In this document: piece after piece, positions 1 through 32,530 of the stretch | How positions within the stretch are numbered: position 1 is the stretch's first letter | How the letters are laid out: each line of letters starts with the position of its first letter | From: an uncultured Chloroflexia bacterium | GTDB lineage: Bacteria; Chloroflexota; Limnocylindria; Limnocylindrales; CSP1-4 | DNA length: 64,000 nucleotides | Direction: 5' to 3' | Assembly (NCBI GenBank): GCA_963766735.1 | Contig: CAVYBU010000006.1 | Span: 1 to 64,000 of the forward strand | The notes under the pieces: model-generated | The model's database searches: none | The model's input: only the letters and a program-made list of their open reading frames with translations | What the model was told of the DNA's origin: nothing | Made by a program: the position numbers and the translations under genes

Positions 1-540
1 GGCAGTGGCCAAAGATACTTCATCTAATGCTTCCAAAGTGTATAAGACAAAGACCGGTAAAACGGATCATAATACGGAGACCCACCCATTCGGACAGAGC
101 CTTAGCACTATCAAGATTAGCACAGAAGGCTTCGAACACAATTATCTGGAAATATATGAGGACAGGGATCCCATTTCTGGTGTATTAATAGCCGACCTGG
201 ATAGTAACGGTTTTGATGAAATTTACATAATTACAACTTCAGCTGGCACTGGTAGTTATGGAACAGTATTTGGGCTTGCTTCAAATAAAGACAAAAGCCT
301 GTCAATGATTAATTTCCCTGAAATACAAGAAGGAGACAGGAATTTCGAAGGATATATGGGACACGATACTTTCAGAATAGAGGATCGAACGCTTGTTAGA
401 ATTTTTCCCATATATAAAAAGGGCGACATCAATCAAAATCCGACCGGCAGGAAACGCAAATTGATTTATGGTTTATATCCAGGAGAGTAGCGATGTGGCA
501 ACTAAATTTAGAGAAGTCAGAAACACTGAACAGCCCATAA
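1..540 (+). CDS. PliI-like (lysozyme-inhibitor-like) protein, 5'-partial, probable frameshift near 487
   Basis: ADLDSNGFDEIYI..SAGTGSYG motif resembles PliI-family SAGSGSY. An alternative frame continues (MWQLNLEKSETLNSP) to TAA at 540. Confidence 0.5.
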
Positions 541-608
541 GCTGGGAATAGAATGAGAATATGCCAGTCAATATAAATAATGTTTTTGGAATTGAATCCG
601 AAAACTCT

Positions 609-787
609 GTATCTGACAAACTAACAATTTGACGTCTGAATTTTTGAAGATAATGTAAACATCTATGCGAAATGAACCGAGTCTCAAAATGTGTGATATC
701 AGATTACGATATATGCATTTTTGCCAGAGTTGGGATTACATCTACATATCTGTAATTCGGGAGAATTTGTGATATTTTATGACATCA
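609..787 (+). repeat. Composite intergenic repeat, copy A
   Basis: GTATCTGACAAA...GATAATGTAAACATCTATG (TGTAAAC 654-660)...TTTTGCCAGAGTTGGGATTACATCTAC...TTGTGATATTTTATGACATCA. Confidence 0.9.
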
Positions 788-837
788 CACATGAATGAAT
801 CTGACCAAATGAATTATGCATTTAAAGGAACGTTTTC

Positions 838-2049
838 ATGAGGAAAAAATGCAAGACGTATATTGTATTAGTGATGTTTTTTTTTGGAACCGTTGGGCAG
901 ATCAAGGCAGAGGAAAACATCATGATAAAAAACATAGCTCGGGATAACACCTTGTTTGCTCTGGATCTTTACAACCAGTTGAAAATGACTGACGGCAACC
1001 TATTTTTCTCGCCGTTTAGTATTTTTACTGCGCTTGCCATGACCTGGGCTGGAGCCCGCGAAAACACTGCCGTTCAGATGGCCGAAACGCTGCATTTCAC
1101 CGAGAAACCCGCTCAGTTTCATCGCGCTATAGGAGATCTGATTTCACAACTTAATGCCGTTCAAAAAGAAACCGATGTTGAACTCAGCATTGCCAATGCG
1201 ATCTGGGCTCAGAAAGGCTACCAATTTCTGGATGAATTTTTCCGGATAGTTCAGCAATCTTATCAGGCTGATCTGAAGCAGGTTGATTTTTCAAGCGCCG
1301 CTGAATCAGCTCGTCAGGCAATCAATGCCTGGGTGGAGCAGCAAACCAATGAGAAGATCAAAGATTTATTGCCGCCCAAAGTGCTCAATGCGCTCACCCG
1401 TCTGGTTTTGGTGAACGCGATTTATTTCAAAGGATTCTGGGACAATCAGTTTAAATCCCGTGACACACGGGAAATGGAGTTTTGGCTGTTGACCGAGGTC
1501 GCCGTTAAGGTGCCGATGATGCACCAGGAACATCAATTCGGATACTGGGAAAATGACTGGTTGCAGATAATTGAGATGCCGTATAAAGAAGAGTCTCTGT
1601 CTTTAATCGTTTTACTTCCCAAAGAAAAGACCGGAATTACTGATTTGGAGCAAAAACTGAATTTTGAAAATATGATGGCCTGGCAAAGCCGGTTGCGAAA
1701 ACGAAAGGTTATTGTTTTCTTTCCAAAATTCAAGATCGAATCGCAATTTAGTTTAGGTCAGACCCTTGCCTTGATGGGCATGCCGGATGCCTTTGATCCC
1801 GAACTGGCTGATTTTTCAGCCATGGTGGGTCAGAAAGAACTGTATATTTCGGCGGTGATTCACAAAGCCTTTTTGGAAGTCAATGAGGAAGGCAGCGAAG
1901 CGGCGGCGGCCACCGGTGTGGTGGTTAGCGTGACCTCCATTGCGCCATCGCCACCGATATTCAAAGCCGACCATCCGTTTGTTTTCTTTATTCGGGACAA
2001 TAAGTCACAAAGCATTTTATTTCTCGGACGGGTGCTAAATCCGGCTTAA
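838..2049 (+). CDS. Serpin (serine protease inhibitor), secreted
   Basis: NLFFSPFSI, LVLVNAIYFKG, hinge EEGSEAAAAT, FKADHPFVFFI; N-terminal signal peptide. Confidence 0.95.
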   Translation: MRKKCKTYIVLVMFFFGTVGQIKAEENIMIKNIARDNTLFALDLYNQLKMTDGNLFFSPFSIFTALAMTWAGARENTAVQMAETLHFTEKPAQFHRAIGDLISQLNAVQKETDVELSIANAIWAQKGYQFLDEFFRIVQQSYQADLKQVDFSSAAESARQAINAWVEQQTNEKIKDLLPPKVLNALTRLVLVNAIYFKGFWDNQFKSRDTREMEFWLLTEVAVKVPMMHQEHQFGYWENDWLQIIEMPYKEESLSLIVLLPKEKTGITDLEQKLNFENMMAWQSRLRKRKVIVFFPKFKIESQFSLGQTLALMGMPDAFDPELADFSAMVGQKELYISAVIHKAFLEVNEEGSEAAAATGVVVSVTSIAPSPPIFKADHPFVFFIRDNKSQSILFLGRVLNPA

Positions 2050-2060
2050 TCGTTAGAGTA

Positions 2061-2182
2061 CAACGTTATCTCAGGGGCGGGAGGGTGAGTTGTGATTCCA
2101 TCTACATATCTGGAATTTAATGATTTTACATGTATTCTCAATCACCAGCCTAGTGATATTTGGTTTTTGCCATACGATATCA
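2061..2182 (+). repeat. Composite repeat, copy B (central module missing)
   Basis: CAACGTTATCTCA...GAGTTGTGATTCCATCTACATATCTG...CATGTATTCTCAA...GATATCA; shares flanking modules with copies C, D and E. Confidence 0.7.
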
Positions 2183-2208
2183 AGACCTGGCGGAATCCAC
2201 GTTAATGA

Positions 2209-2238
2209 TTGACAAAATCCCATCGATTTGGGTATAAA
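2209..2238 (+). promoter_or_regulatory. Sigma70-type promoter
   Basis: TTGACA-18 bp-TATAAA upstream of the cyclase gene. Confidence 0.55.
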
Positions 2239-2400
2239 TAAATGAATTTATACTATTTCTAATTTTCCTATTCCATCTGATCTGAAATAGTACTCAATTA
2301 GCGCAATAGAATCTGACTTCTCATCCGACTTTTGTGCTCTTCCAAATAATCCACATACTGAGTCCCTTTGTTTGAAACCTTGAGACAAGGGGGTGACACT

Positions 2401-4317
2401 ATGGCAGAAAAGGGTTTTAAACGTAAACTCACAGCTATCCTTAGCGCTGATGTTGTTGAATACAGCCGCATGATGCGAGATGATGAGGATGCCACCATCC
2501 GCACGCTGACAAATTATCGTTCTGCCATGTCAAATCTCATCCAAAAATTCCGTGGTCATGTAGTGGACACCATAGGCGATAATCTGTTGGCTGAATTTAC
2601 CAGTGTAGTGGATGCCGTAAATTGTGCAGTTGAGATTCAACGAGAGCTTGCCGAACGAAATGCCGAGTTTTCTGAGGAGCGGAAAATGAAGTTTCGAATC
2701 GGTGTCAATCTTGGTGATGTTGTTGAGGAAGAAGGTCGAATTTACGGAGATGGAGTGAATATCGCCGCTCGGATGGAGAGCTTGGCTGTGGCTGGAGGCA
2801 TTTGCATATCCGGAAGCGTGTATGACAGTGTGGAAAGCAGATTGGGATTGGAATATGAATTTTTGGGCGAACAGGAAGTCAAAAACATCGACAGGCCCGT
2901 CAGGACTTACAGGGTCCTGTCTTTTCCCGGTGCTGCAGCCCACCGGGTAGTTCAGGCCCGGGAGGTAGTTGGGAAAAAGTGGCGTATGTCGGCAATAACG
3001 GCTGGGGCTGTTTTAGTGCTGGTGGCTGCCGGGGCAATCATATGGAACAGTTACCTTCGACCTGTCTCTGTGGAAAAGGCTTCCATTGAAAAAATGGCCT
3101 ATCCCCTGCCCGATAAACCCTCGATCGCCGTGCTGCCATTTGTCAACATGAGTGGTGATCCTGAACAGGAATATTTTAGTGATGGTTTCACCGAAGATCT
3201 CATTACGACACTCTCAAAGATACCGGATCTGTTCATAATCTCCCGTCAATCAACCTTCACCTATAAAGGTAAACCGGTTAAGGTGAACAAGGTCGCCGAA
3301 GACCTTGGTGTCCGCTACGTATTGGAGGGCAGCATCCAGAAATCCGATGATAAAGTGAGAGTAACCGCCCAGCTTATTGACGCCGTCAAAGGCAATCATC
3401 TATGGAGTGAGCGTTACGATCGAGAACTAAAAGACCTTTTTGAGCTCAAAGAAGGCATCATTTTGAAAGTTGCAAATGAGTTATTGGTTGGGCTAGTAAC
3501 CGGAGAGTTTCTACGCCAAATAGTTGGTTATACGGACGATCCTGAGCCTTGGCAGACAAACAATCTTGAGGCATGGGAGACTTATTGGGTTGCACAAAAG
3601 TACGCAAGACGCTTCAGAAAAGAAGACAATGCACGAGCCCGCGATCTTTACACAAAGGCTTACCAACTCGATCCCAACTGGTATATCCCATTAGTGGCTA
3701 TAGGCTATACCCATAGGAATGACGCACGGCATGGTTGGAGCGAGTCGCGTAAAAAATCGTTTGATCTGGCCACTGAGATGGCCAATAAAGTGCTCGCCAT
3801 TAATGATGAATCCGCCTCAGCCTACGGTCTTCTCGGTGCGATCCACCTGATGAAAAGAGAATATGAAAAAGCGAATTACTATAATGAAAAAGCACTGAGC
3901 CTCGCTCCTAACTACTCCGAAGCTCATGCGGGAAGAGGATTTTTGCTAAACTATTTAGGAAAGCCTCAAGAAGCGATCATGCATTTCAAAATAGCCATGC
4001 GGCTCAGCCCTTTTTACCCCCCGTGGTACCTCTATCATCTGGGGTTATCATATCATCTGACCGGGCAATACGAGCAAGCAATCGAAACCCTAAAAAAAGG
4101 GATTGAGCGAACACCGGATGTTATATTTCCACACGTTAGACTGGCTGCAGTATACAGCGACCTTGGTCGCGAGCAAGAGGCTCGCGCTGAGGCGGAAGAA
4201 GTTCTCAGGATAAAGCCAGACTTCTCAGTAGAGAACTATGCAAGAGCCAACCCCTTTAAAGACACTGCCATTGTGGAATACAGAAAGGAGTTGCTGCACA
4301 ACGCCGGGCTTAAATGA
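2401..4317 (+). CDS. Class III adenylate/guanylate cyclase with TM, TolB-like and TPR domains
   Basis: RKLTAILSADVVEYS, FRIGVNLGDV, GDGVNIAARME, PSIAVLPFVNMSGDPEQEYFSDG, C-terminal TPRs. Confidence 0.93.
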   Translation: MAEKGFKRKLTAILSADVVEYSRMMRDDEDATIRTLTNYRSAMSNLIQKFRGHVVDTIGDNLLAEFTSVVDAVNCAVEIQRELAERNAEFSEERKMKFRIGVNLGDVVEEEGRIYGDGVNIAARMESLAVAGGICISGSVYDSVESRLGLEYEFLGEQEVKNIDRPVRTYRVLSFPGAAAHRVVQAREVVGKKWRMSAITAGAVLVLVAAGAIIWNSYLRPVSVEKASIEKMAYPLPDKPSIAVLPFVNMSGDPEQEYFSDGFTEDLITTLSKIPDLFIISRQSTFTYKGKPVKVNKVAEDLGVRYVLEGSIQKSDDKVRVTAQLIDAVKGNHLWSERYDRELKDLFELKEGIILKVANELLVGLVTGEFLRQIVGYTDDPEPWQTNNLEAWETYWVAQKYARRFRKEDNARARDLYTKAYQLDPNWYIPLVAIGYTHRNDARHGWSESRKKSFDLATEMANKVLAINDESASAYGLLGAIHLMKREYEKANYYNEKALSLAPNYSEAHAGRGFLLNYLGKPQEAIMHFKIAMRLSPFYPPWYLYHLGLSYHLTGQYEQAIETLKKGIERTPDVIFPHVRLAAVYSDLGREQEARAEAEEVLRIKPDFSVENYARANPFKDTAIVEYRKELLHNAGLK

Positions 4318-4420
4318 ATTGGCTTGTTTTTTCTAAGCATCGCAATCCTATTAAGAAACAAGTGCAGATTGCTTCTTCAATAACCAACTATCTTGGGTCT
4401 TCAATTTTTACGGATTTCTC

Positions 4421-4541
4421 CAACGTATCTGACAAATTTTGGACCTCTAAAAATGTCAGATAATGTAAACATCTATGAAAATTTGACCTGTATTTAGAAT
4501 TTGTGGTATCAGATGCATTTTTACCAAAGTTGGGGTTACAT
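4421..4541 (+). repeat. Composite repeat, copy C (ends just before the YR/IS91 element's flanking hairpin)
   Basis: TATCTGACAAATTTT..AAAAATGTCAGATA hairpin, ATGTAAACATCTATG...AGTTGGGGTTACAT. Confidence 0.9.
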
Positions 4542-4550
4542 AGAATAGCG

Positions 4551-4654
4551 TTTTATCAATCGTTGCGCTGACGCAAATAAGGCAACAATACCGGTGGCAT
4601 TTTAGTTTCAGATAAATGTGTAGATGAGTTAAGCCTCAGCAATGATTGATAAAA
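4551..4654. repeat. Long imperfect hairpin flanking the element's left end
   Basis: TTTTATCAATCGTTGCGCTGA ... TCAGCAATGATTGATAAAA; the loop contains GTAGATG (inverted CATCTAC). Confidence 0.75.
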
Positions 4655-4947
4655 TGGTGAACTGTACCGCGGCTGGGCGGCAGGATTCGACGAGTGTAGT
4701 CTATGGGGATTATATGGATGGCATCAAGTCAATAGTTTTCATCGAGGGCACTGATTTGAGCAGGGTGAATTTAATAAAATGAAAAATTTGACCTATCTGC
4801 GCCCCATTTGTTGTTTGAAAATTATGATAAGTCTGCAAAATCATATTTGTATACACATCGATGGCAGAAAGCGTGCGCAGCTGTACTGTCGTGCTTTAAC
4901 AGCAACTTTTTAATCTTAGAAAATAAGCATCAAGACAGATATAGTGG

Positions 4948-6155
4948 CTATGATGAATTCAAATCATTTTTTGGCAATTTTCTGATTGGTATCATTTTAC
5001 CCTTCTTGCATTTCGGACAGCAGCTAATGTCTATGCCGGTCAATCGGAGCATCATTTCGCTGATGCTCTCTTTAATTTTCTCCGGCAATGTTGCATCCGG
5101 ATCGATTAATTTTCTAATAAGCGGGATATCTTTTTTTTTGTTTGTGTGAGCTAAAAAGCCAAAGTATCGGATTTTGAAAAAGCCCTTTGGCAGGACATGA
5201 AGCAAAAATCGGCCGATGAACTTATCAGCATCAAGGGTCATTTCTTTGATTTCATTGTCTTTTTGACGATCCCGGTAGGTAAAAGTGACGCTGCCGTTAT
5301 CAATGGAGATGATCCGATTGTTAGATATGGCAACCCGGTGAGTGTAGCGGCCAAGATACTCAAGTACCTGCTGGGGACCTGCAAAAGGGCGCTTTGCATA
5401 GGCGATCCATCTTTTTTTTGAAACCGAGTTAATCAGCTGTTGGAATGCTTGCCTGGAGTTAAGGGCAGCAGTTTTTTGGGTAAAAATCAACTCGTCTTTT
5501 AAATAGGCGTTCAACAGCAGTTTGAGATAGCGTTTTCTAAACTCCTTAGCCAGAGAAGTGATTTTAAACAGAAAGTTATCTTTGGTCGGTATCCATTTGT
5601 CTTTGGTGAAGGAAAGAGCCCCTGCGGGAATCAGGCAGTGCAGATGGAAATGGTCGATAAGCGTCTGTGACCAAGTATGCAAAACGCTGATGAATCCGAG
5701 CCGGCCTTCAAGTCTCCACTGAGGATCTTTGGCAAAGGCTTGAAGGGTTTGATTGACAGCGGCAAACAAGATGTTCAGGGTCGTTCTTTTGTTGGATAAT
5801 ATAATGGGATTAAGGTCATGTGGCAGGGTGAATACCAGGTGGAAGTAACCGCAGGGGAGCAGTTCTGCTTTGCGGTCATTAAGCCATTGTTCCTTTGTCA
5901 TCGTTTGACATTTAGGGCAATGTCGATCCCGACATGAATTATAAGCATTTTGCTCAAATGCACATTGGTCGCATTGCTCAACATGACCGCCAAGCACAGC
6001 GGTTCGGCATATTTCAATATGGTGCATGACTTTTAACTGTTCATAGGACGCGCGTGTGATCGCCGGTAATCATCTGCGTAAAGGCGGAAAATATCGGCCA
6101 GTTCCACTTGTTCTTTGTTTTTGGGGGCCAGGGAATCATTGTGTGTTTTTTTCAT
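4948..6155 (-). CDS. IS91-family transposase (zinc-binding + Y2_Tnp), frameshift near 6050
   Basis: CRTAVLGGH..C..C..YNSCRDRHCPKCQ, HLVFTLP, HTW..HFHLH (HUH), YLGRY (YxxxY), IRYFG; the N-terminus ELADIFR lies in another frame. Confidence 0.92.
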
Positions 6156-6167
6156 TATTGCACCTCC

Positions 6168-7022
6168 TTACTCATCATCTTCATAAAGGGTATCCAGCGG
6201 GCTTTTGCACTGTTGGACCCGCTCGGGTATGAGGTGGAGGTAAATAATGGTGGATTTTAAAGAGGAGTGGCCCAAAAAACGCTTAAGGGTGTAAAGATCC
6301 ATTCCTTGGTAAAGTGAATGAGTAGCGAAGGTGTGCCTCAGACAATGGATACCGAGGCCCTTGGTTAGACCGGCTTTTTTTTTGCGAGGTAAAAAGCGGT
6401 TTGTGCCGCGCCTTCACACAGGTGGGTTTGAGGCTTTTGTCCGGCAAACAACCATTTGCCGGGACGATATTTACTCCAATAAGTTCTCAGATCCGTAAGC
6501 AGCCTTTTGGGAAAGAATTGTGTAACGATCCTTTTTGCCTTTGCCCTGATCGACGCGAATCATCATGCGGTCAGCATCACTTTCGATGTGCTTGGGCTTA
6601 AGGCGAACCAGTTCACTGACCCGCAGCCCTGAGCCATAAACGGTTTGCAACAACAGCCGGTGTTTAAGATTTTCAGCTGCAGCAAGCAATCGTTTTACTT
6701 CCGGTTGGCTAAAAACAACCGGCAGTTTTTTAACACGGGGCCGGGGCGGGATTTGAAACTCGGCATCGTCCCATTTACAAATATGCCTGTAAAAGCAGAC
6801 AATACCGGACAAATAAGAATTACAGGTGCCCCAGGACAATTTGCGTTCTTCAAGCAAATGGCGGATATAGTCCTGGATCTGGTCGTTGGTCAAGGTGTCG
6901 GGCGATTGCATGTAATATTTGGACAATAGCTTAACACCAGTTACGTAGCTTCTCTTTGTGTGATCGGAAAATCGTTGCAAGGTCATGTAGTTGAGAAATT
7001 GGGTTTTCAGTTCACTGGCCAT
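6168..7022 (-). CDS. Tyrosine recombinase (N-terminal SAM-like domain), frameshifts near 6505 and 6385
   Basis: GLRVSE, KGKKDR, then in shifted frames HCLRHTFATH, LGH, STIIY; full R-K-H-R-H-Y set present. Confidence 0.9.
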
Positions 7023-7178
7023 AATAATACCTCCTTGGTAAAAAGTTAATATAATAGGACGCTTTACCTGGAGATACTATAAAACAATATAGCTTGGATT
7101 AGGAGGTTAAAGTTGATCTGTCGATAAAATGAATTCGGTGGGTAAACATTCTCCGCGAAGCGGTTCAGTTCATCTTAC

Positions 7179-7208
7179 TAATCACAGGTTTGCTTATTTC
7201 TGTGATTA
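7179..7208. repeat. Hairpin flanking the element's right end
   Basis: TAATCACAG-12 nt-CTGTGATTA immediately after CAGTTCATCTTAC. Confidence 0.7.
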
Positions 7209-7247
7209 CATAATAATATCCAAAATTTTGATCAGTGTATCAGCTTG

Positions 7248-7344
7248 TGTAAACATAGTCAGTTCACTCATGATTTAAAAAGATCAATTGTTGAGCCTCT
7301 GCTCAGCGAAACGACCGCTCCAGCAGAGTTGTGCTGACGTTACA
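7248..7344 (+). repeat. Divergent repeat-like hairpin
   Basis: TGTAAACATAGTCAG...AGAGTTGTGCTGACGTTACA; same TGTAAACAT/GTTACA ends, different interior. Confidence 0.5.
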
Positions 7345-7443
7345 ATATTTCCTCCGGCCCGCGCTATACTTTGGGAAAATAGTATTGATCGGGATCTGAC
7401 TGAGTTTGTTTCATATCAATGCATAAATCGACAGAGGTGAATA

Positions 7444-8100
7444 ATGGAAAACCCGATTCAGAATTACCGGCAGATAAGGTTGGCACGTGTAAAAGAGTCA
7501 TTGGAGGGGAACAATTTCGAGGCATTTATCGCAGAAAATGTAGAAGAGGCAAAACAAATCATGAAGGAGGAGATTCTGCCCAAATTAAGAGATATAAAAA
7601 TCGTTTCTAGAGGAGATTCCTTGACATTTGAAGCTACAGGTATGCTGGAGGTAATTGAAAAAAACACGGCCTTTGACTTCTTGGATCCCTTTGAAAAGGG
7701 TCTCCCTGATGAAGAAATATACGAACGGGGTAGGCAGGCACTTCTGACGGATCTATTTTTTACAGGAACAAATGCTCTGACAGAGACGGGTATCCTTGTC
7801 AACCTCGATGGGTGGGGAAATCGGGTTGCGGGTCTTACCTATGGACCCAAATACGTGATCGTTACGGTTGGCCGGAATAAGATAGTCCCTGATTTGGATA
7901 GTGCAATGTATCGGATTAAAGATTATGCAGCTCCGGTCAATGCCATGCGGTTCAACACGAAGACACCCTGTGTAAAGACATCCTTTTGTGAGGATTGCAA
8001 GAGCCAAGATCGCATCTGCAGCACCTGGACCATCACGGAAAAATCTTTTCCAAAAGGCAGGATAAAGGTGATTTTAATCAACGAAGAATTAGGATTTTGA
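7444..8100 (+). CDS. LUD-domain (LutC/YkgG-like) protein
   Basis: GTNALTETGILVNLDGWGNRVA, GRNKIV, TPCVKTSFCEDCKS. Confidence 0.88.
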   Translation: MENPIQNYRQIRLARVKESLEGNNFEAFIAENVEEAKQIMKEEILPKLRDIKIVSRGDSLTFEATGMLEVIEKNTAFDFLDPFEKGLPDEEIYERGRQALLTDLFFTGTNALTETGILVNLDGWGNRVAGLTYGPKYVIVTVGRNKIVPDLDSAMYRIKDYAAPVNAMRFNTKTPCVKTSFCEDCKSQDRICSTWTITEKSFPKGRIKVILINEELGF

Positions 8101-8158
8101 ATATTTATTTATTGGGTGCCTCAACAGCCAATTCTCATTTATTATGGATATGTTATGC

Positions 8159-8452
8159 ATATCTGCAAAAGGTTCTGTCTTAAAAAATTACAGATATTGT
8201 AAACATCTATGTAGAATTGACCGACCTATAAAACTTGTGATATCAGATTACGGATAGCCATTTTTGCCAGAGTTGCTGTATCATCTACGTGTCTTTACTT
8301 TTACACTTTTCCATGTATTCTCAACATCTATGCAAATTTGACCGACCTTCACAAATTGTGATATTAGATTACGGTATATGCGTTTTTGCAAGAGTTGGGG
8401 TTACATCTACTACCTGCAAGTTTCAGGTAAGTTGTGATATATTATGATATCA
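8159..8452 (+). repeat. Composite repeat, tandem copies D1 (core 8198-8289) and D2 (core 8323-8410)
   Basis: Two AACATCTATG...AGAGTTG..CATCTAC units joined by a ...CATGTATTCTCAA module, ending TGATATATTATGATATCA. Confidence 0.9.
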
Positions 8453-8577
8453 ATAGTTTTATAGAAAATTAGAATTTCAAAAATATTGTACCAAATAGAA
8501 TCTATGATATTGAATAGTATAGATTCCACCTAATACATGTTAGCTGAACATCAACACAATAAAGGAGATCCAAGTTC

Positions 8578-10005
8578 ATGAAAACCACACTGTCGAAAAT
8601 TCTTCTGAGCACGATGCTTGTGTTCGCGTCCCTTCCTTCTATTTCCGCCCACGCGGACATTGACCTCACTTCAGCGGAAATTGAGGCCATCGCCGAGGAA
8701 GGCTTCATCTACGGTCTACCGATCGTGATGAACTATGGGGTGATGAACGAATACGCGATCAACCGCGATTCCGGCCAGTTCAAGGCCCCGTTCAACCACA
8801 TCAAGAACGAGGCACGCGTCTTCACCTACAAGGACACCGCGATCATCACACCGAACAGCGACACACCTTACTCGCTGCTGTGGCTCGACCTGCGGGCGGA
8901 GCCAATCGTCCTGTCCGTTCCCGCGGTGGACAAGAACCGTTACTACTCGGTGATGCTCGAGGACGGCAACACCTTCATTTACGGCTACATCGGGAGCCGC
9001 GCCACCGGTTCCGAAGCGGGCGACTATATGGTCGTCGGCCCGGGTTGGAAGGGCGAGGTCCCGGACGGGATCAAGAAGGTTTTCCACTCCTCCACCCAGT
9101 TCTCGCTGGTTGCCTACCGCACCCAGCTGTTCAATCCTGAAGACATGCCAAACGTGGTAAAAATTCAGTCCGGTTACGGAGTGAAACCGCTCTCCGAGTT
9201 CCTCGGCCAGCCGGCTCCCAGCCCCGCGCCGAAGATCGATTTCCCGAAGTTCGACAAGGAAATGGTGAAAACGAAGTTCTTCGATTACCTGGAGTTCTCG
9301 CTCCAGTTCGCGCCTGCCGGTCCGGAGGAAAAAGAAATTCGCGCGAAGCTCGCCAAGATCGGAGTTGGCCCGGACAAGACCTTCGACTTGGACGATCTCT
9401 CTCCAGAGCAAAAGAAAGCAGTGGCAGCAGGCATGAAGGCCGGTGAAGCCAAAATCGCAGAATACCTCAAGACGCAGCTGATCGAACTGAATGGCTGGGG
9501 CATCAGCAGCTATTTTGGGGATCGCGCGTTCTATAACGGCGATTGGCTGAAACGTGCCGCAGGCGCGCAAGCTGGAATCTATGGTAACGAGTCCATCGAA
9601 GCCGCCTATCCGATCGCCAAAACACTGGCTGACGGCTCGCCACTCGATGGAAGCAAGAGCAACTACACGATCACCTTCCCGGCCGATGGATTTCCGCCGG
9701 TGAACGCCTTCTGGTCGGTGACCATGTACGACGGCAAGACCCAGTTGCTGATCAAGAACCCGATCAACCGCTACCTGATCAATTCGCCGATGCTGCCGGA
9801 CATGAAGAAGAACGCCGATGGATCACTGACTCTTTACATCCAGAAGGACAGTCCCGGAGCCGAAAAAGAGAGCAACTGGCTCCCGGCCCCCGACGGCCCG
9901 ATCTACCTCGCGATGCGCCTCTACTGGCCGCGCACGGAGTCGCCAACGATCCTGCCGATCGGCAAGGGCGACTGGAAGCCACCGGTCATCGTGGAGGTTA
10001 AGTGA
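8578..10005 (+). CDS. DUF1254/DUF1214 secreted protein
   Basis: FIYGLPIV, TPNSDTPYS, FWSVTMYD, NWLPAP, MRLYWP; signal peptide. Confidence 0.92.
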   Translation: MKTTLSKILLSTMLVFASLPSISAHADIDLTSAEIEAIAEEGFIYGLPIVMNYGVMNEYAINRDSGQFKAPFNHIKNEARVFTYKDTAIITPNSDTPYSLLWLDLRAEPIVLSVPAVDKNRYYSVMLEDGNTFIYGYIGSRATGSEAGDYMVVGPGWKGEVPDGIKKVFHSSTQFSLVAYRTQLFNPEDMPNVVKIQSGYGVKPLSEFLGQPAPSPAPKIDFPKFDKEMVKTKFFDYLEFSLQFAPAGPEEKEIRAKLAKIGVGPDKTFDLDDLSPEQKKAVAAGMKAGEAKIAEYLKTQLIELNGWGISSYFGDRAFYNGDWLKRAAGAQAGIYGNESIEAAYPIAKTLADGSPLDGSKSNYTITFPADGFPPVNAFWSVTMYDGKTQLLIKNPINRYLINSPMLPDMKKNADGSLTLYIQKDSPGAEKESNWLPAPDGPIYLAMRLYWPRTESPTILPIGKGDWKPPVIVEVK

Positions 10006-10007
10006 CC

Positions 10008-10137
10008 AGCTAACAATGGGCTCCAAGGGACCGGCGGGCAGCGCGGTTTTTCGAGGTTCAGCCTTGCTGCCAAATTTGTAAGTCAATCAAAGCTCAGTGC
10101 TGCAAATCTCCGCCGGCCTCTGGGCTCAAGGTTACAT
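10008..10137 (+). other. attC site (130 bp)
   Basis: R'' AGCTAAC just after the stop codon; arms GGGCTCCAAGGGACCGGCGG / CCGCCGGCCTCTGGGCTC; R' G|TTACAT. Confidence 0.85.
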
Positions 10138-10148
10138 ATGTCTGCGTT

Positions 10149-10310
10149 GTATCTGTAAAAAATGGAAGCCCCAAAAGTGCATATACTGTAAACATCTATG
10201 TAGAATTGACCGACCTTTAAAAAATGTGATATCTGTATTTTTGCCGGGGTTGGGGTACCATCTACGTATATGTAGTTTGGCGATTTTGCATGTATTCAAT
10301 ATACATGCAA
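10149..10310 (+). repeat. Composite repeat, copy E
   Basis: GTATCTGTAAAA...ACTGTAAACATCTATG (10187)...GGTTGGGGTACCATCTAC...CATGTATTCAA. Confidence 0.88.
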
Positions 10311-10441
10311 TTTTGATGAATGTGATTTTATTTATTATATCGCAAGTTTGGAGAAAGTAGTGGTTTCATCTTTATCAGGGTATTAGGTTGATAAATAAAA
10401 ATCGATATAACAACTAATGCTAAACCTAAGGATATGAAATT

Positions 10442-10825
10442 ATGGAGCCTAAAGCCAATGACAAGAGAGTATCATCTTCTTCACCAAACCTGCCTCAGAA
10501 AGTGCGCAAAATTTTAATTGTTTACCTTATATCTGCTGTTATTGTTTTGGTTATCTGTTTCATTTTTGGATGGCGATCAATAGAAAATATTGGAACCGGA
10601 TTTATATATGGTTCCTTGAGTCTGGCACTTTTCGGCGCATTGCTCTTGGCAGGGAATACGGTTCCTGCTCAACTTTCTAAACTTTCACTCCCCTCTGTTA
10701 GACGCCATCAAGAAAACGAAAGCGATGGTTCTCCGTCTAAGGATGAAGGAAAAAGATTCTTTTTTACGACTTTAATATGTGGAGCATTTTTATTTGTGAC
10801 AGGACTTATTTTAAAATTATTGTGA
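10442..10825 (+). CDS. Small membrane protein (3 TM), unknown function
   Basis: 127-aa ORF with hydrophobic segments and an AAGGA RBS. Confidence 0.7.
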   Translation: MEPKANDKRVSSSSPNLPQKVRKILIVYLISAVIVLVICFIFGWRSIENIGTGFIYGSLSLALFGALLLAGNTVPAQLSKLSLPSVRRHQENESDGSPSKDEGKRFFFTTLICGAFLFVTGLILKLL

Positions 10826-10894
10826 TATTTGGCATATCTGTAAAATGGCCCAACTGCATCAATATATCACAACTTGAGTTAAAGGGGCTGAGAG

Positions 10895-11944
10895 ATGAAA
10901 ATAGTGAAAAGGATTCTTCAAGGTTTGGGCATCTTCATTGGAATAATTGTCCTTTATCTATCAATCGTGACCTTTTTCCCTGGCTTCAAGGTTCTGGAAC
11001 AACCTCTTGAACAACGTAAGCAATTAAAAAGTGATGTAGACTCAGAACTATCTTCAAAAAGAAAAAATGTGAGTTTTAAAGTCAAAGGGACGTCGATAAG
11101 TGCATGGTTGTATCTTCCAGATAATTTATCTGTTCCAGTTCCTTGTATCATTATGGGTCATGGATTTGGGGGTACGAAAGATATGGGTTTGGAATCTTAT
11201 GCTATTCGTTTTCTGGAAGCTGGCTTTGCGGTGCTCATTTTTGATTACCGACACTTTGGCGAAAGCGAGGGAGAACCTCGGCAGTTGATATGGATTCCTT
11301 ACCAGCTGGAAGATTGGTCATCGGCGATCACTTATGCACGAGGGCTTAAGCAGATTGATCCATCAAAAATTGCTCTCTGGGGGACCTCTTTGAGTGGTGG
11401 CCACGTGATTGCAACTGCTGCAAAAGACAATCAGATTGCTTGTGTAGTCGCACAATGTCCTGGACTGGATGGTCGGGCATCCGGAGAGATGTTTTTTGAT
11501 AGAGTAGGAATCGGATATCTGCTTCGTATGGCAATGCACGGACAACGTGACTACTTGAGGTCGTGGTTTGGACTTTCGCCTCATAAAATACCAATTGTCG
11601 GAAAACAAGGAAGTATTGCTTGTTTGACTACTCCAGATGCTTACGACCATTTCAGAAAATTTGCACCAGCCAATTATATTAACGAAGTCTGTGCTCGTAT
11701 CTTTATTCGGGGAGACAAATACAGGCCGGTCAAACAGGCCCAGAATGTGCGTTGCCCAGTTCTGCTTCAGATATGCGAAAATGACAGTATAATTCCCAAA
11801 AGTGCAGCAGAAGAAACTGAAAGGCAATTAGGGAAATACGCAGAAGCGATATACTATCCAATCGGCCACTTTGATATCTATATAGGGGCTAACTTCGAAA
11901 AGGCTGTAAAGGATCAGCTTTTGTTTTTTAAGAAGCACCTGTAA
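10895..11944 (+). CDS. Alpha/beta hydrolase
   Basis: HGFGG, FDYRHFGESEGEPRQ, nucleophile elbow GTSLSG, GHFDIY. Confidence 0.92.
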   Translation: MKIVKRILQGLGIFIGIIVLYLSIVTFFPGFKVLEQPLEQRKQLKSDVDSELSSKRKNVSFKVKGTSISAWLYLPDNLSVPVPCIIMGHGFGGTKDMGLESYAIRFLEAGFAVLIFDYRHFGESEGEPRQLIWIPYQLEDWSSAITYARGLKQIDPSKIALWGTSLSGGHVIATAAKDNQIACVVAQCPGLDGRASGEMFFDRVGIGYLLRMAMHGQRDYLRSWFGLSPHKIPIVGKQGSIACLTTPDAYDHFRKFAPANYINEVCARIFIRGDKYRPVKQAQNVRCPVLLQICENDSIIPKSAAEETERQLGKYAEAIYYPIGHFDIYIGANFEKAVKDQLLFFKKHL

Positions 11945-11960
11945 TATCTCCAACAAAAAA

Positions 11961-12083
11961 CAACTATCTGGCATCACTTAAAACTGCATATACTGTAAAC
12001 ATCTATGCAGAATTGATAGGGCTTTAAAACTTGTGAAACCAAATTACGATATTTGCAATTTCACAAGATTTGGGAGTACAGCT
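11961..12083 (+). repeat. Composite repeat, copy F (degenerate)
   Basis: CAACTATCTG...ACTGTAAACATCTATGCAGAATTGA (11994)...TTACGATAT...AGATTTGGGAGTACA. Confidence 0.8.
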
Positions 12084-12120
12084 GAAACAATGTTGATATG
12101 AATATCAGAGGTTCGATGAG

Positions 12121-12651
12121 ATGAAGTCTAAAATAGCAGAAACTCTGATAGCTTCACTTGGAACACTATTTTTCCTATTTTTGATAATTCCTTTCTTTTT
12201 GATCTGGATACCCCATAGAATCCTTTTATCGCCTGAATATATTTACCGTTTTGACATCGGTATATATCGGTATTTTGGGCTGTCTCCGATAGTACTCGGT
12301 GTTGTAATATACATTTTTTGTTCTGGTAGTTTCGTATTTGTTGGCAAAGGTACACCGATACCTTTTACGCCAACTAAAGAGTTAATAGTGACTGGATTAT
12401 ACAGATTTGTTAGAAATCCATTGTACATTGCTGGAGTTCTTGTTTTGGCAGGAGAAGCAATTCTATTTCAATCTTTAGGCATATTTCTTTATTGCTTGGT
12501 AATGTTTGGGGTTTTCAATGTCCATGTCATCATGGAGGAAACTTTATTAGCAGAAAAATTTGGTGCGAGATACGAACAATATTGCAAGTCTGTTCCTCGT
12601 TGGATTCCAAGATTAAAACCCTATAGTAAAAAAGATACAGAGTCCAAATAA
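12121..12651 (+). CDS. Isoprenylcysteine carboxyl methyltransferase/PEMT family membrane protein
   Basis: GKGTPIP, LIVTGLYRFVRNPLY, EETLLAEKFG..YEQY...VPRWIP. Confidence 0.9.
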   Translation: MKSKIAETLIASLGTLFFLFLIIPFFLIWIPHRILLSPEYIYRFDIGIYRYFGLSPIVLGVVIYIFCSGSFVFVGKGTPIPFTPTKELIVTGLYRFVRNPLYIAGVLVLAGEAILFQSLGIFLYCLVMFGVFNVHVIMEETLLAEKFGARYEQYCKSVPRWIPRLKPYSKKDTESK

Positions 12652-12712
12652 ACAAATCTGCGAAGTTTCCAACTTTTTTCAGGTGAGCCTAAATTGCAGA
12701 TATCCTGCTATG

Positions 12713-12886
12713 GTATCGGAAAAAAATTGCCCGCCCAAAAGTACTGATACTGTAAACATCTATGCAAAATTGACCGGTCTTTAGAATCTGTGATATCAGA
12801 TTACGATATATGCATTTTTGCAAGAGTTGGGGTTACATCTTACGTATCCAAAGTTTGAGGAAATTTGTGATATTTTATGGTATCAA
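12713..12886 (+). repeat. Composite repeat, copy G (near consensus)
   Basis: GATACTGTAAACATCTATGCAAAA (12751)...TTTTGCAAGAGTTGGGGTTACATCT...TGATATTTTATGGTATCA. Confidence 0.9.
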
Positions 12887-13029
12887 AGGTTTTGAAAGGC
12901 GTGATCCTCGTTATATTTTCTCAAACGAAGGTTGATTTAAACTGAGACAATGGTTTGTTATTTTCAATCCTGATGAGGTAAAGATAACCTTTTGATAAAA
13001 AGACCCTGTAATTTTGAAAGGAGGTTGAA

Positions 13030-13209
13030 ATGGCTACTATAATCGTTGAGAGTAAATGGCCTGCTGCAAGTTCCGAAAAGCTTGCTAAGACATGGTTGGA
13101 AATGGGTGATGTAGCAGAATCGCAGAAAATGATTTGGGCCGGCACTTTAGATGATATTAATTTAGTAAGGATACGCTCACGGGCAAGTGAAAATTGCGTT
13201 TATGGGTGA
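13030..13209 (+). pseudogene. Short ORF probably interrupted by the IS4-type element
   Basis: Strong RBS GGAGG and ATG at 13030 (MATIIVESKWP...); coding character is lost near 13150. Confidence 0.4.
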
Positions 13210-13297
13210 ACTTTTTACCGAATAAAAAGCCTCCTTGTGGTAAGAATTACAAGCGCCAACTAATAATTCTACACCAAAAGCAAGGAGGCTAGAGACG

Positions 13298-13810
13298 ATG
13301 ATACACCAAATTGGCAGGAAATTGCGACAGCAAATTCATTATTTTTCGGGTGAACTTTGTAAGGTATGGGAACCGTGGCTTCCCGCTTTGTTGAGGAGGC
13401 CGTTTTTGGCATATCTGCCAGCGGATCTGTTCGGTTGACTGAAATCGGTCGGGCTTTAGAGGAAAAAATTCCGCTTCATGCGACCCACAAGCGTTTGAGT
13501 CGTAATTTGGCAGATCAAAGCCTTGAAGATAACCTGGGGAGCAACGTTCTCAAGTTGGGCTCAAAACGTATAAACGAAAATACGCTACTGATCGTTGACC
13601 CATCTGATGTTAAAAAAAAATACGCCAAGAAAATGCAATATCTAGCCGATGTGCGTGATGGCAGCGAGGATACAATCGGAAAGGGATACTGGTTATGCGA
13701 AATCGTTGGCTGTGAAGTCGGATCAAATGAGATTACACCGCTGGCACAAGAACTATGGTCGCAGGATGCGCCTGATTTTAAGAGCGATAACGATCAAATC
13801 CTTTACCTTG
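13298..13810 (+). mobile_element. IS4-type DDE transposase, N-terminal fragment truncated at the junction
   Basis: SVRLTEIGRAL, KRLSRNL, LIVDPSDVKKKYAKKMQYL..VRDGS..GYW; frameshift near 13365. Confidence 0.8.
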
Positions 13811-15321
13811 GCCGGGCCGGTGCAGCAGGTACCCCTGGCCCGCGTCAAAGCCCATCTCGATGACGGCCAGGAGCTGGTCGGGTGTCTCGATGCCCTCGGC
13901 GACGGTCGTCTGGCTGCGTCGCTGGGCAAGCTCGCGAAGCGCGCGCAGCACGGCCTGGGAAGACTCATCCCGGACCCCGGCCTGGACCAGCGAGAGGTCG
14001 ATCTTCATGATGTCGAACTCGAGCTCCCGCAACAGCCGGAGGCCGGCGTTGCCGGCGCCCACGTCGTCGGCCGCGATCCGCATGCCGTGCCCCCGAAGCA
14101 GCGTGATGGCCTGGCGGAGCCGGTCGAGATCCTCGACGGCCTCGCGCTCGGTCAGCTCCAGGACGATCCGGGCGGGGTCGAACCCGCGTTGGCGGACGAG
14201 CGCGAGGAACTCCTGGGGCTGGAAGGCATCTGCCTCGAGAGACCGCGGCGAGAGGTTGACCGACAGGTAGAGGTTCGCGCCCATCGTCCGCGCTCCGGTC
14301 AGGACGGTGTCGAGGCTGGCCAGGTCAAGCTCCACGGTGTGATCCGTCGACTCGGCCGCGATGAACAGGGCGCTCGCATTGGCGAACCCGGCGTCCGCAT
14401 TCGGGCGAACCAGGCCCTCGTAGCCCAGGACGCGTCCCGTCCGCAGGCAATGGATCGGCTGGTACACGGGCGTGAGGAGGCGGTCTGCCGAGACGCGGGC
14501 CACGGCGGCTGCCAGCTCCGGCAGAGACCGTCCGTCATCCACGATTCCGTGCCGGGTCGGGTCGAAGAGCTGGACGTCGGTGCGGCCGTGGCGCTTCCCC
14601 CAGTAGAGCGCGGCACCCGCCTGGTGGACCAGCTGCTTGAGATCCCTGGCCAGCTCGGGCATGGCCGAGACACCGATGGTCAGCGAGAACGGGGCGACGC
14701 CAAGCGTCCCGGAGCCACCGCTCAGTGCGCTCGCCAGGATCCGTCGCGCGGTGCCGACGGCCTCATCCGGCCCCCCGTCCGGCAGCACGATCGCGAAGTC
14801 GTCACCGCCGATCCGGAACCCACGTTCCGATCCGCGGAGGGTGCCCAGGATGATCCGGGCCGTGGCCCGGAGGATGTCGTCGCCAGCGGCCTGACCCTGG
14901 GCCTCGTTGATCTGCTTCAGGTCGTCCACGTCCAGGTACAGGAGCGCGATCGAGCCTGACTCGGCACGGGCCGATGTCACCTGGCGACCGAGCTCCTCCT
15001 GGAAGGCCCGGTGGTTGCCAAGGCCGGTCAGCCCGTCGCTCAGCGCATCCAGGCGGGCACGATCGTAGGCGTCCTTGAGCCCATCCTGCTCGTTGTCGAG
15101 ACTCGCCACCTGGCCCAGGATCCGCCGCAGGGCCAGCCCGGACAGGACGCTGAACGCGATCACGATGGACAGCCAGAGGAGCGAGCGCCCAGCGGAGCTC
15201 GGGGTTCAGTCTGCCACGCGATCAGCAGGGTCGCAGCGACCCACAGCGCGGCGCATGCAACGAACCAGCGCACCAGGCTCGTGCGAATCGTCCGCGCCAT
15301 CGGGGTCGCGGGAGTCTTCAT
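13810..15321 (-). CDS. Membrane GGDEF/EAL protein, 3' end truncated at the junction, frameshift near 15160
   Basis: DGLTGLGNHRAF, GGDDF, YEGLVR, LELTE, DDVGAG, KID, AEGIET, QGYL. Confidence 0.9.
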
Positions 15322-27464: not shown

Positions 27465-28721
27465 ATGCGTCCCATGTCGTCCCTGTGGCCCGCAAGGGGC
27501 CCATCTCACCTGAGCACTGGAGGCGTCCGACCGCGTGGCTCGTCACGTCGGCGCTCGGACCCCGGGGTCCGCTCACGCGGCCAGTCGCGTCGTCGAGTTC
27601 GCGCTGGTTCTGCCGCTCCTCTTGCTGCTCGTCATGGGTGGCCTCGACTTCGGGCGTGTGTTCCTCGGCTGGGTCAGCCTCAACAACACGGCCCGCATCG
27701 CGGCCAACTTCGCGGCGTCGAACGCCGGGCTGATCAGCTCGGGCAACACGGCGGCCCTGGCTGCCTACAACAGCCTGGTCCAGGACGACGCGACGGCGAC
27801 CAACTGCGCGCCGCCGGACCCGATCCCTGCCCCCACGTACTCGCCCACCGCCGGGATCGGTGGCGACGCCACCGTTGGCCTGTCCTGCGACTTCCAGATC
27901 ATCACGCCCATCATCTCGGTGGTCCTCGGCAACCAGGTCACGGTGAGCGCGTCTGCCGTCTTCCCGGTTCGGACCGGGGTCGTCGCCAACGTTCCCGGGG
28001 GCGGTCCGCCGAGCCCGGTGGCCGCGTTCAACGTCAGCCCTGCCACCGGAGATGCCCCCCTGAGCGTGACGTTCAACAACGTCTCAACTGGCAACCCGAC
28101 GACCTATGCGTGGGACTTCGAGAACGACGGCATCGTCGACTCGACCGCCAAGGATCCGCCCGCACACGTCTACAGCGTCCCCGCCACGTACACCGCCGTC
28201 CTCACGGTTTCGAACGGCCTCGTGTCGTCCAGTGCGAACCGGACGATCACGGTGACGACGCCGCCCGGCCCGATCGCCAACTTCACGGTCACCCCGATGA
28301 CCGGCACGGCGCCGCAGACCGTCACGTTCGCCAACATCTCCACCGGGACGATCACCTCGTACGCGTGGGACTTCGACGGCGACGGGACGACGGACTCCAC
28401 GGTCAAGGACCCGCCGACCAGGTCGTATGCCGAGGGCAACTGGACGATCACCCTCACCGTGGCCGACGCCCTCGCCCAGTCATCCACGACAAGCAAGGTG
28501 GTCAGCTTCGCGGCCCCGATTCCGCTGTGCACCGTCCCCAACTACAAGAACCAGGACACGGACAACAACATCCAGCAGCAGTGGACGACGGCCGGGTTCC
28601 AGACAACGGTCATCTTCAACCCGTCGCGACCCCCGAATTCAAGATCACGAAGCAGTCGCGGCGGCCGGCTCGCCGAACAGCGTCGTGCGCGACCACCGTG
28701 ATGACGGTGTACGACAAGTGA
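27465..28721 (+). CDS. TadE-like minor pilin with two PKD domains and a PASTA-like domain (frameshifts)
   Basis: RGQS|VVEFALVLP, two YAWDF PKD repeats, CTVPN. Confidence 0.8.
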   Translation: MRPMSSLWPARGPSHLSTGGVRPRGSSRRRSDPGVRSRGQSRRRVRAGSAAPLAARHGWPRLRACVPRLGQPQQHGPHRGQLRGVERRADQLGQHGGPGCLQQPGPGRRDGDQLRAAGPDPCPHVLAHRRDRWRRHRWPVLRLPDHHAHHLGGPRQPGHGERVCRLPGSDRGRRQRSRGRSAEPGGRVQRQPCHRRCPPERDVQQRLNWQPDDLCVGLRERRHRRLDRQGSARTRLQRPRHVHRRPHGFERPRVVQCEPDDHGDDAARPDRQLHGHPDDRHGAADRHVRQHLHRDDHLVRVGLRRRRDDGLHGQGPADQVVCRGQLDDHPHRGRRPRPVIHDKQGGQLRGPDSAVHRPQLQEPGHGQQHPAAVDDGRVPDNGHLQPVATPEFKITKQSRRPARRTASCATTVMTVYDK

Positions 28722-28729
28722 GGCGCGCG

Positions 28730-29165
28730 ATGGGTGTGCGATGGTCGGGACGCGACTCCAGCCGGGGCCAGGGGCTCGCGGAGTTCGCGCTGATCTTCCC
28801 GGTCATGATGCTGCTCCTGGTGGCGATGTTCGACGCAGGACGGCTGGTCTTCGCCTACAACGACATCACGAATGCGGCCCGCGTCGGAGCACGGTCGCAA
28901 TCGTCAACCAGGGCTCCGGCGTGGCCGAGGCCGCGACGGTCGGCCAGGCGACCTCCCTGGGCCTGTCCAACTCGGACGTGACCGTCACCTACCTGCAGCC
29001 CGATCTCAGCGGGAGCTGCGCACAGCCCCGATGCCCTGGGCTGCGTGGCAGAGGTGAACGTGCCAGTTCGACTGGGCGGCGATCACGCCCATCATCGGCA
29101 ACGTCATCGGCCCCATCACGATCACCACGGAGACCCGCATGCCCATCGAGCGGGTGTTCCCGTGA
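28730..29165 (+). CDS. TadE-like minor pilin (frameshifts)
   Basis: RGQGLAEFALIFP, DAGR, TNAARVGAR; C-terminus MPIERVFP. Confidence 0.8.
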
Positions 29166-29209
29166 TCCATATCGTCCATCCCGTCGAGCCTCACCGGGGG
29201 TACATCGCC

Positions 29210-30418: not shown

Positions 30419-30534
30419 CGGTCGCGGCCCTCGTCCCGCGTCGCCTGGCGGACGGCGGTCGAGAGCGCAGCGAAGTTGGCGCGCGGGCGCGCGGTCAACT
30501 GGCGTCAGCTGGCGGCGGCCTCGCGGCCGAGTGG

Positions 30535-30762: not shown

Positions 30763-30829
30763 GGCCGCAGGTTCCACCCTCGGCGTCCTGGCGGCAATGG
30801 CATCTTCGTACCGGGACCAAAGGGGCCGT

Positions 30830-30880
30830 TGCGCTCTCGCGCCGCTCGCAAGGCGCGCGGCAAGGTACCAGGACGATAGT
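30830..30880 (+). promoter_or_regulatory. Shared Tad-triplet upstream motif, copy 2
   Basis: TGC-N6-GCG..CGCAAG-N6-GGCAAG-N10-GATAGT. Confidence 0.55.
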
Positions 30881-32520: not shown

Positions 32521-32530
32521 GGGAACCATC

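Follow-up and report, generated by a model that had tools for sequence, protein, structure and literature searches.

A defective recombinase-bearing IS91-family insertion sequence in an intergenic repeat: ends, target preference and a shared frame change in the recombinase gene

We analyzed a 64,000-nucleotide stretch of DNA (hereafter, the window; positions 1 to 64,000 of contig CAVYBU010000006.1, GenBank assembly GCA_963766735.1, assigned to an uncultured Chloroflexia bacterium). Positions 4540-7171 read as a defective insertion sequence of the IS91 family, from a subgroup in which the HUH (Y2) transposase gene is immediately preceded by an Xer/IntI-like tyrosine recombinase (YR) gene. The observations as a whole are likely to reflect a dead copy of a recombinase-bearing IS91 element with ter and ori ends that inserted without duplicating its target, in a family that would transpose in the manner of IS91, recode its recombinase and use that enzyme in target preference, integration or resolution. 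Both genes are on the minus strand, and the upstream end of the element is its right-hand end in window coordinates (Table 1).

To place the limits of the element, we compared it with loci that encode close relatives of the transposase, 49 from genomes and 80 from metagenomes (L-numbers below denote such loci), and scanned 130 sequences for the ends by pattern. The transposase family is large, with 8,000 scored proteins at E-values up to 1e-30, many of them on contigs of ~2.6-3 kb. Relatives of 90-94% identity align with the window, in element orientation, from AACTGAACCGC... (window 7170/7171) to ...ACGCTATTCTATG (window 4540), and homology stops at 7171/7172 on the right and 4539/4540 on the left. 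This gives an element of 2,632 bp, with a boundary that is ambiguous by one base (4539-7170 fits equally well). The scan recovered the upstream end in 51 sequences, the downstream end in 67 and both in 36. Because homology ends at 7171/7172 and the DNA beyond aligns with the right parts of other repeat units, 7172-7344 is flank; an earlier reading of the same DNA (the first-pass annotation) had included it in an element running from 4541 to 7344.

The insertion point, GGGGTTAC^ATCTTAC, lies inside one unit (copy C) of an intergenic repeat, and the insertion is fixed in orientation. Excising 4540-7171 in silico joins the two halves into the exact consensus of intact repeat units, from which we conclude that no target duplication was made. 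The earlier proposal that the element interrupts a repeat copy was correct. The uninterrupted form, GGGGTTACATC followed by window 7176 onward, is present in contigs from sequencing runs, which may derive from other copies of the repeat. Across the 36 loci carrying both ends, no regular direct repeat flanks the element. We rejected a regular 3-4 bp target duplication on two grounds: base use differs between the upstream flank and the downstream tip, and the tip word tracks element lineages rather than the upstream flank.

Table 1 Features of the element and its surroundings (window coordinates).
Feature	Position	Strand	Basis
Whole element	4540..7171	-	Homology breaks versus L007, L058, L008, L049, L060, L071 and L076
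Ori-like terminal tip, 11 nt, ATAGAATAGCG; family form A-W-N-GAATAGCG	4540..4550	+	End comparison
OriIS-like subterminal hairpin, 16-20 bp stem, 72-nt loop	4551..4654	+	Arms 4551-4566 and 4639-4654, covariation
Inverted ter 12-mer inside the element, plus-strand GAACTGTACCGC (the left terminal inverted repeat of the first-pass annotation)	4659..4670	+	11/12 match
IS91-family HUH (Y2) transposase gene with N-terminal zinc-binding domain	4948..6155	-	PF14319 and PF04986; broken by a private -1 nt at ~6049-6052
Tyrosine recombinase gene (Xer/IntI-like)	6168..7022	-	PF13495 and PF00589; private +1 nt at 6503/6504; stop codon 6168-6170
A9 run (T9 on the plus strand) ending A_AAA_AAG, with -1 frame change inside the YR gene	6375..6383	-	Frame survey of related loci
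TerIS-like end: palindrome CCGCGAAGCGG, TTCA, terminal GTTC	7153..7171	+ (bottom strand, antisense to genes)	Conserved in relatives
Left half of interrupted repeat copy C, ending GGGGTTAC	4401..4539	+	Repeat-unit alignment
Right half of repeat copy C (ATCTTAC...), including the 7179-7208 hairpin	7172..7235	+	Aligns with right parts of other units
Intergenic repeat copies	620-790, 2087-2141, 4401-4539+7172-7235, 8135-8455, 10125-10345, 11935-12100, 12690-12890		Repeat search
Genes for serpin, adenylate cyclase-TPR, LUD-domain, DUF1254/DUF1214, alpha/beta hydrolase and PEMT/ICMT-like methyltransferase proteins	1..13,800	+	

The two ends fit the plan of IS91 elements. In PMC13181058, terIS is a single subterminal palindrome beside the cleavage word, which is GTTC in IS801, IS1294 and IS1294b. 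There, oriIS has a subterminal palindrome, or two of them, directly adjoining the target word, and insertion makes no duplication. Set against that description, the upstream end of our element is a classical terIS and the downstream end is oriIS-like, with a conserved hairpin of 17-20 bp. The ter end was found at the upstream end in 51 of the 130 sequences, the others being without that end, and it is kept in a distant clade. The base preceding AACTG is G in 39/39 distinct flanks, and we assigned this G to the element because the internal inverted copy carries it as well.

At the left end, the tip ATAGAATAGCG is followed by the hairpin, TGGT and then GAACTGTACCGC, the inverted copy of the ter 12-mer. 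This copy lies 119-130 nt inside the element, and the right-hand 12-mer (7160-7171) is the true terminus. The 12-mer core occurs only twice within the window; at least two matches also arose in 11 of 100 shuffles, so the pair is not beyond chance there, and its significance comes from conservation across the family rather than from the count in the window. The internal 12-mer and the hairpin were found together in 53/53 distinct family sequences examined, and the same end plan, with different stem sequences, is kept in ~45%-identical relatives from Acidobacteriota, Gemmatimonadota, Mesorhizobium and Singulisphaera. The 16-nt hairpin arms of the window copy are 94% complementary and 72 nt apart. 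One pair of the stem is compensatory (C:G in seven sequences versus A:T in three), and two G.T pairs on the bottom strand are kept in 9-10 of 10 sequences, where the gene strand would have A.C mismatches. When the hairpins of 63 sequences were folded, the bottom strand was the more stable in 46 and the top strand in 16, with one tie (mean asymmetry, 1.4 kcal/mol). Loop sequences group into two or three conserved types, that of the window holding a CATCTAC-like word. We rejected the loop as a target guide, since loops are constant within types and the 7-nt target centers vary. About 45 nt inside the internal 12-mer, a further sequence (window 4713-4731, TCTATGGGGATTATATGG; TATAAT on the gene strand) is near-invariant in elements down to ~72% identity and could be an outward promoter or a protein site.

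These results alter the picture given by the first-pass annotation, which saw terminal inverted repeats at both ends, each followed by a hairpin, and two oriIS-like GTTC ends. Its 15-mers are present (4656-4670 on the minus strand and 7160-7174 on the plus strand) and 13/15 identical, but only the right-hand copy is terminal, the left lying 119 nt inside. Both hairpins likewise exist; the left one is conserved element DNA, and the right one (7179-7208) belongs to the flanking repeat. The two ends are also of different kinds, ter-like upstream and ori-like downstream, and the second GTTC 12-mer is internal. Several details were correct, including the stop of copy C at GGGGTTACAT (4541), the inverted CATCTAC word in the left loop (GTAGATG at 4621-4627) and the operon of YR and IS91-type genes, which is now backed by Pfam and NCBIfam matches.

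Insertions in the family share an extended target preference. Among 39 distinct upstream flanks, read in element orientation, G stands at -1 in 39, T or A at -2 in 38, and G, A and T at -12, -11 and -10 in 25, 30 and 31, respectively. After ...CTATTC, 52 distinct downstream sequences continue with N-W-T-G (T in 49 and G in 49) and then W-W-A-T-C, with A, T and C at +7, +8 and +9 in 41, 38 and 37. Variation at the four tip bases is narrower than in the upstream flank and is linked to lineage (for example, TTA-GATG in L073, L082, L083, L085 and L086), for which reason we assigned these bases to the element. The empty site favored by insertions is thus a dyad of 17 nt, GATW-N6-W^G-WWATC. The bottom strand carries WWC^W at the ori flank, at the ter end and in the target alike, which resembles the tetranucleotide shared in IS91 (PMC13181058). 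The word adjoining ori is TTAC in the window and, across the family, bottom-strand W-W-C followed by A; although akin to the classical word, it is neither GTTC nor CTTG.

The transposase gene matches PF14319 (E = 9e-26) and PF04986 (E = 2e-56) in window 4948-6027, and the intact, 99% identical relative P0001 scores 429 bits against the NF033538 cut-off of 125. The window gene is frameshifted near residue 40. Compared with five intact relatives, the window copy has one additional base at 6503/6504 in the YR gene and lacks one base at ~6049-6052 in the transposase N-terminus. Both indels are private to the window copy and together they break both genes, making it dead. In marine-sediment runs X1 and X2, all covering depth at 6503/6504 is of the unshifted form; at 6049-6051, this holds for all covering depth of X1 and X6, most of X2 and ~40% of X4. 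These run contigs come from other copies of the element and cannot decide whether the window indels are real, and no piece listed from runs X1, X2, X4 and X6 spans the element or the change in base composition at 13.8 kb; uncovered parts are not evidence.

A recombinase gene immediately precedes the transposase gene in 69 of the 81 loci with at least 950 nt of upstream sequence, and on Rhizobium plasmid pT136b (RefSeq) a tyrosine-type recombinase is annotated 8 nt upstream of an IS91 family transposase. The best-scoring profiles are XerA (180 versus a cut-off of 220), IntI (159 versus 265), XerC (143 versus 335) and XerD (137 versus 330), none of which reaches its equivalog cut-off; the top match in PDB is IntI4, and archaeal Xer proteins are also among the closest solved structures. 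Catalytic residues R134, K159, H224, R227, H250 and Y259 are invariant in an alignment of 34 single-frame homologues. Among 75 distinct C-terminal sequences, H-x-x-R, H and Y are retained throughout, apart from the degenerate L017 and motif variants outside the search patterns. The window gene encodes the catalytic residues, with its frame broken. Four of the 12 loci without an adjoining YR gene (L063, L107, L127 and L128) lose homology at an identical element position, 837, just 3' of the A run. Upstream of it are two other tyrosine recombinase genes on the opposite strand, of 412-426 and 305 amino acids (for example, L063 471-2623 and L127 482-2676), and this break may mark another mobile element that inserts at a fixed point within the recombinase gene.

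By analogy with IS91, the transposase would cut the antisense strand twice, at the ori flank behind a WWC-type word and at ter behind GTTC, and the nicked antisense strand would be moved as single-stranded DNA. The G.T pairs and the better folding of the bottom strand are indirect evidence for single-stranded intermediates. The 3' ter 12-mer could pair with the internal inverted copy beside the hairpin, which would bring the ends of the element close to each other. The recombinase would add the extended dyad preference GATW-N6-W^G-WWATC, or aid integration or resolution. Two other accounts assign it a different share of the work, and a complex prediction for transposase and recombinase (score 0.00) is evidence neither way.

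In one account, which we find somewhat unlikely, the HUH transposase does all of the DNA chemistry, and the recombinase is merely accessory or regulatory, binding the ends to improve ter recognition or, as a short frame-0 product, repressing transposition. Frame 0 of the gene does stop after 218 residues, giving a DNA-binding fragment without the catalytic Tyr. Such a fragment without its catalytic part recalls OrfA of IS3-type elements. The position of the YR gene and its near-overlap with tnpA are also those of orf121 in IS91, whose product Orf121 improves recognition of terIS (PMC13181058). Against this, even deeply diverged sequences retain the catalytic H-x-x-R, H and Y, and stops are absent from the -1 frame, neither of which is expected of a mere DNA-binding regulator.

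The other account, a sharpened form of the coupling proposed in the first-pass annotation and rather unlikely in our assessment, couples the two enzymes: the HUH transposase would only make a single-stranded circle, which the Xer/IntI-like recombinase would integrate by single-strand exchange, as for CTX phage and attC sites. One arm of the folded circle would consist of the ter 12-mer paired to the internal copy, the other of the hairpin stem, with 6-7 unpaired nucleotides as the center between them; the joint would be GTTC^AWN, at the boundary of arm and center, and the partner would be the dyad GATWWC^W-N6-WATC. The YR is nearest to recombinases that work on folded single strands or Xer-type sites, and its catalytic residues are kept down to ~35% identity. 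The 17-nt dyad target far exceeds the 4-nt target of IS91 (PMC13181058), with the insertion point at the edge of the 7-nt center; the conserved G.T pairs point to folding of the bottom strand; and an insertion with no duplication and no need for center identity fits exchange of one strand. Yet the classical IS91 reaction accounts for the junctions equally well, all three cut sites being WWC^W, and the two putative arms of the folded circle are unlike, so a homodimer site is not evident. The most specific version of this account, drawn by analogy and in our view unlikely, is a two-enzyme transposon in which the HUH transposase would peel off a strand circle that folds, through the ter 12-mer, its internal copy and the hairpin, into a recombinase site, after which a slip-dependent Xer/IntI-like recombinase would insert the folded strand at GATW-N9-WATC by one-strand exchange, like CTX phage or integron cassettes. 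The reading we favor is an IS91-like transposition to which the recombinase would contribute target preference, integration or resolution.

Without ribosomal or transcriptional slippage at the A run, expression would give the 218-residue N-terminal fragment; full-length recombinase would depend on the slip. Our frame survey began with 96 loci containing both halves of the YR gene, of which 11 were too partial and 85 evaluable, repeat finds of one element in different samples being counted. In 62 of the 85, the reading frame of the C-terminal half is shifted by -1; another 22 have this half in frame, and one has it at +1. The -1 loci, which cover 52-100% YR identity, always have the A9 run (or T plus A8) followed by GCC, so that the heptamer A_AAA_AAG is preserved, and the frame beyond the shift is open, without internal stops and with H-x-x-R, H and Y retained. 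The in-frame group consists of the distant clade together with L013, L033 and L091. Given an arrangement that is constant across many assemblies and the conservation of both frames, the shared -1 shift at the A8-9 run is probably programmed recoding of the YR, by a ribosomal -1 shift or by transcriptional slippage. Of three frameshifts reported in the first-pass annotation, this one is common to the family, and the other two (~6504 and ~6052) are the private 1-nt indels; the run contigs carry unshifted forms at both of these, within the limits given above.

That the shared shift is instead a recurrent homopolymer error, or the mark of a recombinase gene dead across the clade, seems very unlikely. 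A9 runs are prone to errors in both sequencing and replication, and length variants exist (L091 in frame, L092 +1). However, the -1 arrangement is identical in 62 loci from many assemblies and studies, A8 variants are compensated by a preceding T that keeps frame and heptamer, and the downstream frame is still open with its catalytic residues intact.

The repeat that hosts the window copy spans ~130-200 nt, with two ACATCTA cores ~95 nt apart, and one copy follows each gene in a row of unrelated genes of uneven G+C content. The hairpin at 7179-7208, with arms TAATCACAG (7179-7187) and CTGTGATTA (7200-7208), is repeat rather than element DNA. In a related 7-Mb Desulfobacterales chromosome (G001), a search with one unit gave 119 first-look candidates, of which 40 were scored, placing at least 40 scored copies on both strands throughout the chromosome. 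Three repeat units folded on both strands had z-scores of -0.95 to +1.11. A genuine integron integrase of G001 (389 bits versus a cut-off of 265) lies ~120 kb from the nearest repeat copy among the matches listed. We rejected an integron/attC reading of the array, as the units have no stable fold and the copies are dispersed on both G001 strands. The sole element copy of G001 (L011, 3800-4100) is split near the start of the recombinase gene by an IS200-like coding sequence, and its downstream flank is masked. A Rfam scan of window 1-14,000 gave no match at E-values up to 1.

Only five of the 52 distinct downstream flanks are repeat (the window, L064, L073, L077 and L099). Each of them matches the left half at 18-24 of 26 positions in identical register and orientation, compared with a maximum of 17/26 over 10,400 shuffles; the common feature of the remaining 47 is the short dyad motif. 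The repeat is thus a good instance of the target motif and neither attC nor a product of the element, which appears as an occasional tenant and not as an engine; the repeat itself is REP-like. The first-pass annotation had offered the element as either the engine of the array or a specialized parasite of it. The chromosome with at least 40 repeat copies against one interrupted element speaks against an engine; of the parasite, what stands is the set of five insertions at one position and in one orientation. The reading in which terminal inverted repeats and two oriIS-like ends, each with a hairpin, bound an element that builds or specifically parasitizes the array is extremely improbable: the inverted 12-mers are real, the window copy and four other distinct insertions enter the repeat family at one point in one orientation and the loop of the window's element type carries CATCTAC-like words, but the left 12-mer lies inside the element, the right hairpin lies outside it in the flank, 47/52 distinct downstream flanks are not repeat, the dispersed repeats of G001 coexist with one interrupted element copy, matches to the element came from only 15 genomes among the 301 sampled in that order (mostly on ~2.7 kb contigs), and loops are constant within types where target centers vary.

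Several points weigh against our explanation of the element as a dead, recombinase-bearing IS91 copy with recoding and no target duplication. Every mechanistic step, the coupled mechanism included, is deduced from sequence. The word adjoining ori (TTAC, or T/A-rich plus C) is not the GTTC or CTTG of the IS91 members treated in PMC13181058. The strand asymmetry of the hairpin is modest and comes from related sequences rather than an independent sample, the A9 run is also a classic site of sequencing errors, and the two indels of the window copy could be assembly errors instead of decay. Short metagenome contigs of a multi-copy element supply most of the flanks, and the two flanks of one contig may not pair; L073 and L085, for example, have a common upstream flank and different downstream flanks. 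Finally, a model without duplication leaves unexplained the rare word TAG found at both the upstream-flank end and the downstream tip of L010, and gives no account of the six bases common to the same two places in L073, L082 and L085.

Compared with classical IS91, IS801 and IS1294, the element shares a zinc-binding Y2 HUH transposase and, as those elements are described in PMC13181058, the layout of the ends: upstream of the genes a ter end whose small palindrome adjoins GTTC, and downstream of tnpA an ori end bearing a subterminal palindrome. Target duplication is likewise absent, and a short specific word stands beside ori. It differs in that its upstream gene is a tyrosine recombinase with catalytic residues, where theirs is orf121 or nothing; in the word beside ori, TTAC or T-W-W-C rather than the GTTC or CTTG of that paper; in a target preference of ~17 nt with dyad symmetry; and in the inverted copy of the ter 12-mer beside the ori hairpin. 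The gene pair of Rhizobium pT136b is identical in content and order, but elements of that type have a single-frame recombinase gene, whereas the clade of the window needs the -1 shift. ISfinder lists IS91-family entries with an upstream 'phage integrase' gene (ISSod25, ISShvi3, ISWz1, ISMno23 and ISAzo26), and the accessible text on ISShvi3 and ISWz1 makes no mention of an integrase. Our literature search found no printed description of the ends, target or recoding of recombinase-bearing IS91 elements.

The arrangement at the A run resembles programmed frameshifting in IS3- and IS1-type elements, which likewise involves A_AAA_AAG in an A8-9 run, a short DNA-binding frame-0 product and a catalytic part in the -1 frame. 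Here, however, the recoded gene is that of a recombinase accessory to the HUH transposase, not the transposase, and the case is known from sequence only. As a working analogy only, the family resembles CTX phage and integron attC sites in its nearest recombinase family, in a conserved imperfect one-strand hairpin and in insertion at the edge of a short center with no duplication; unlike them, its hairpin stays whole at one end after insertion, its YR has no match to the IntI-specific insert and the flanking repeats are not attC. Insertion sequences that target REP or BIME repeats include IS1397, ISKpn1 and IS621. Orientation-specific insertion at one point of a dispersed intergenic repeat is a likeness to these, although they belong to other transposase families and only 5/52 distinct insertions of our family lie in the repeat.

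The surroundings of the element differ from the rest of the window. Positions 1-13,800 have ~42% G+C and carry a row of unrelated plus-strand genes, the YR and transposase genes sitting on the minus strand between the cyclase and LUD genes. G+C jumps from ~42% to ~70% at 13,780-13,830, a contig from run X1 matches the window to 13,799 and then diverges, and the repeat family and the insertion sequence have no other occurrence in the 3.6-Mb assembly. A chimeric join has probably attached Desulfobacterales-like DNA, the first 13.8 kb, to a high-GC contig. Within the high-GC part, tandem repeats of ~385 bp (three copies, 81-99% identity) and ~303 bp (two copies, 98%) occupy 42,032-43,853. Five genes at 27,576-34,868 have a common 81-nt N-terminal coding motif, which we take to resemble TadE/pilus-assembly leader regions.

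The window copy is ordinary in itself, and caution is needed with its context: the repeat 'array' should not be taken for an integron, and the opening 13.8 kb is probably foreign to the high-GC genome to which it is attached. The interest lies in family-level features of the little-studied recombinase-bearing IS91 elements, namely exact ends that combine the classical ter/ori plan with an inverted ter copy inside the element, a dyad target of 17 nt as opposed to the four bases of IS91, and a large marine-sediment clade whose recombinase gene can be read whole only through a -1 slip. If it is true that the recombinase acts on the single-stranded product of the transposase, the family would provide a natural hand-over from an HUH nuclease to a tyrosine recombinase and a compact, site-preferring DNA insertion system.

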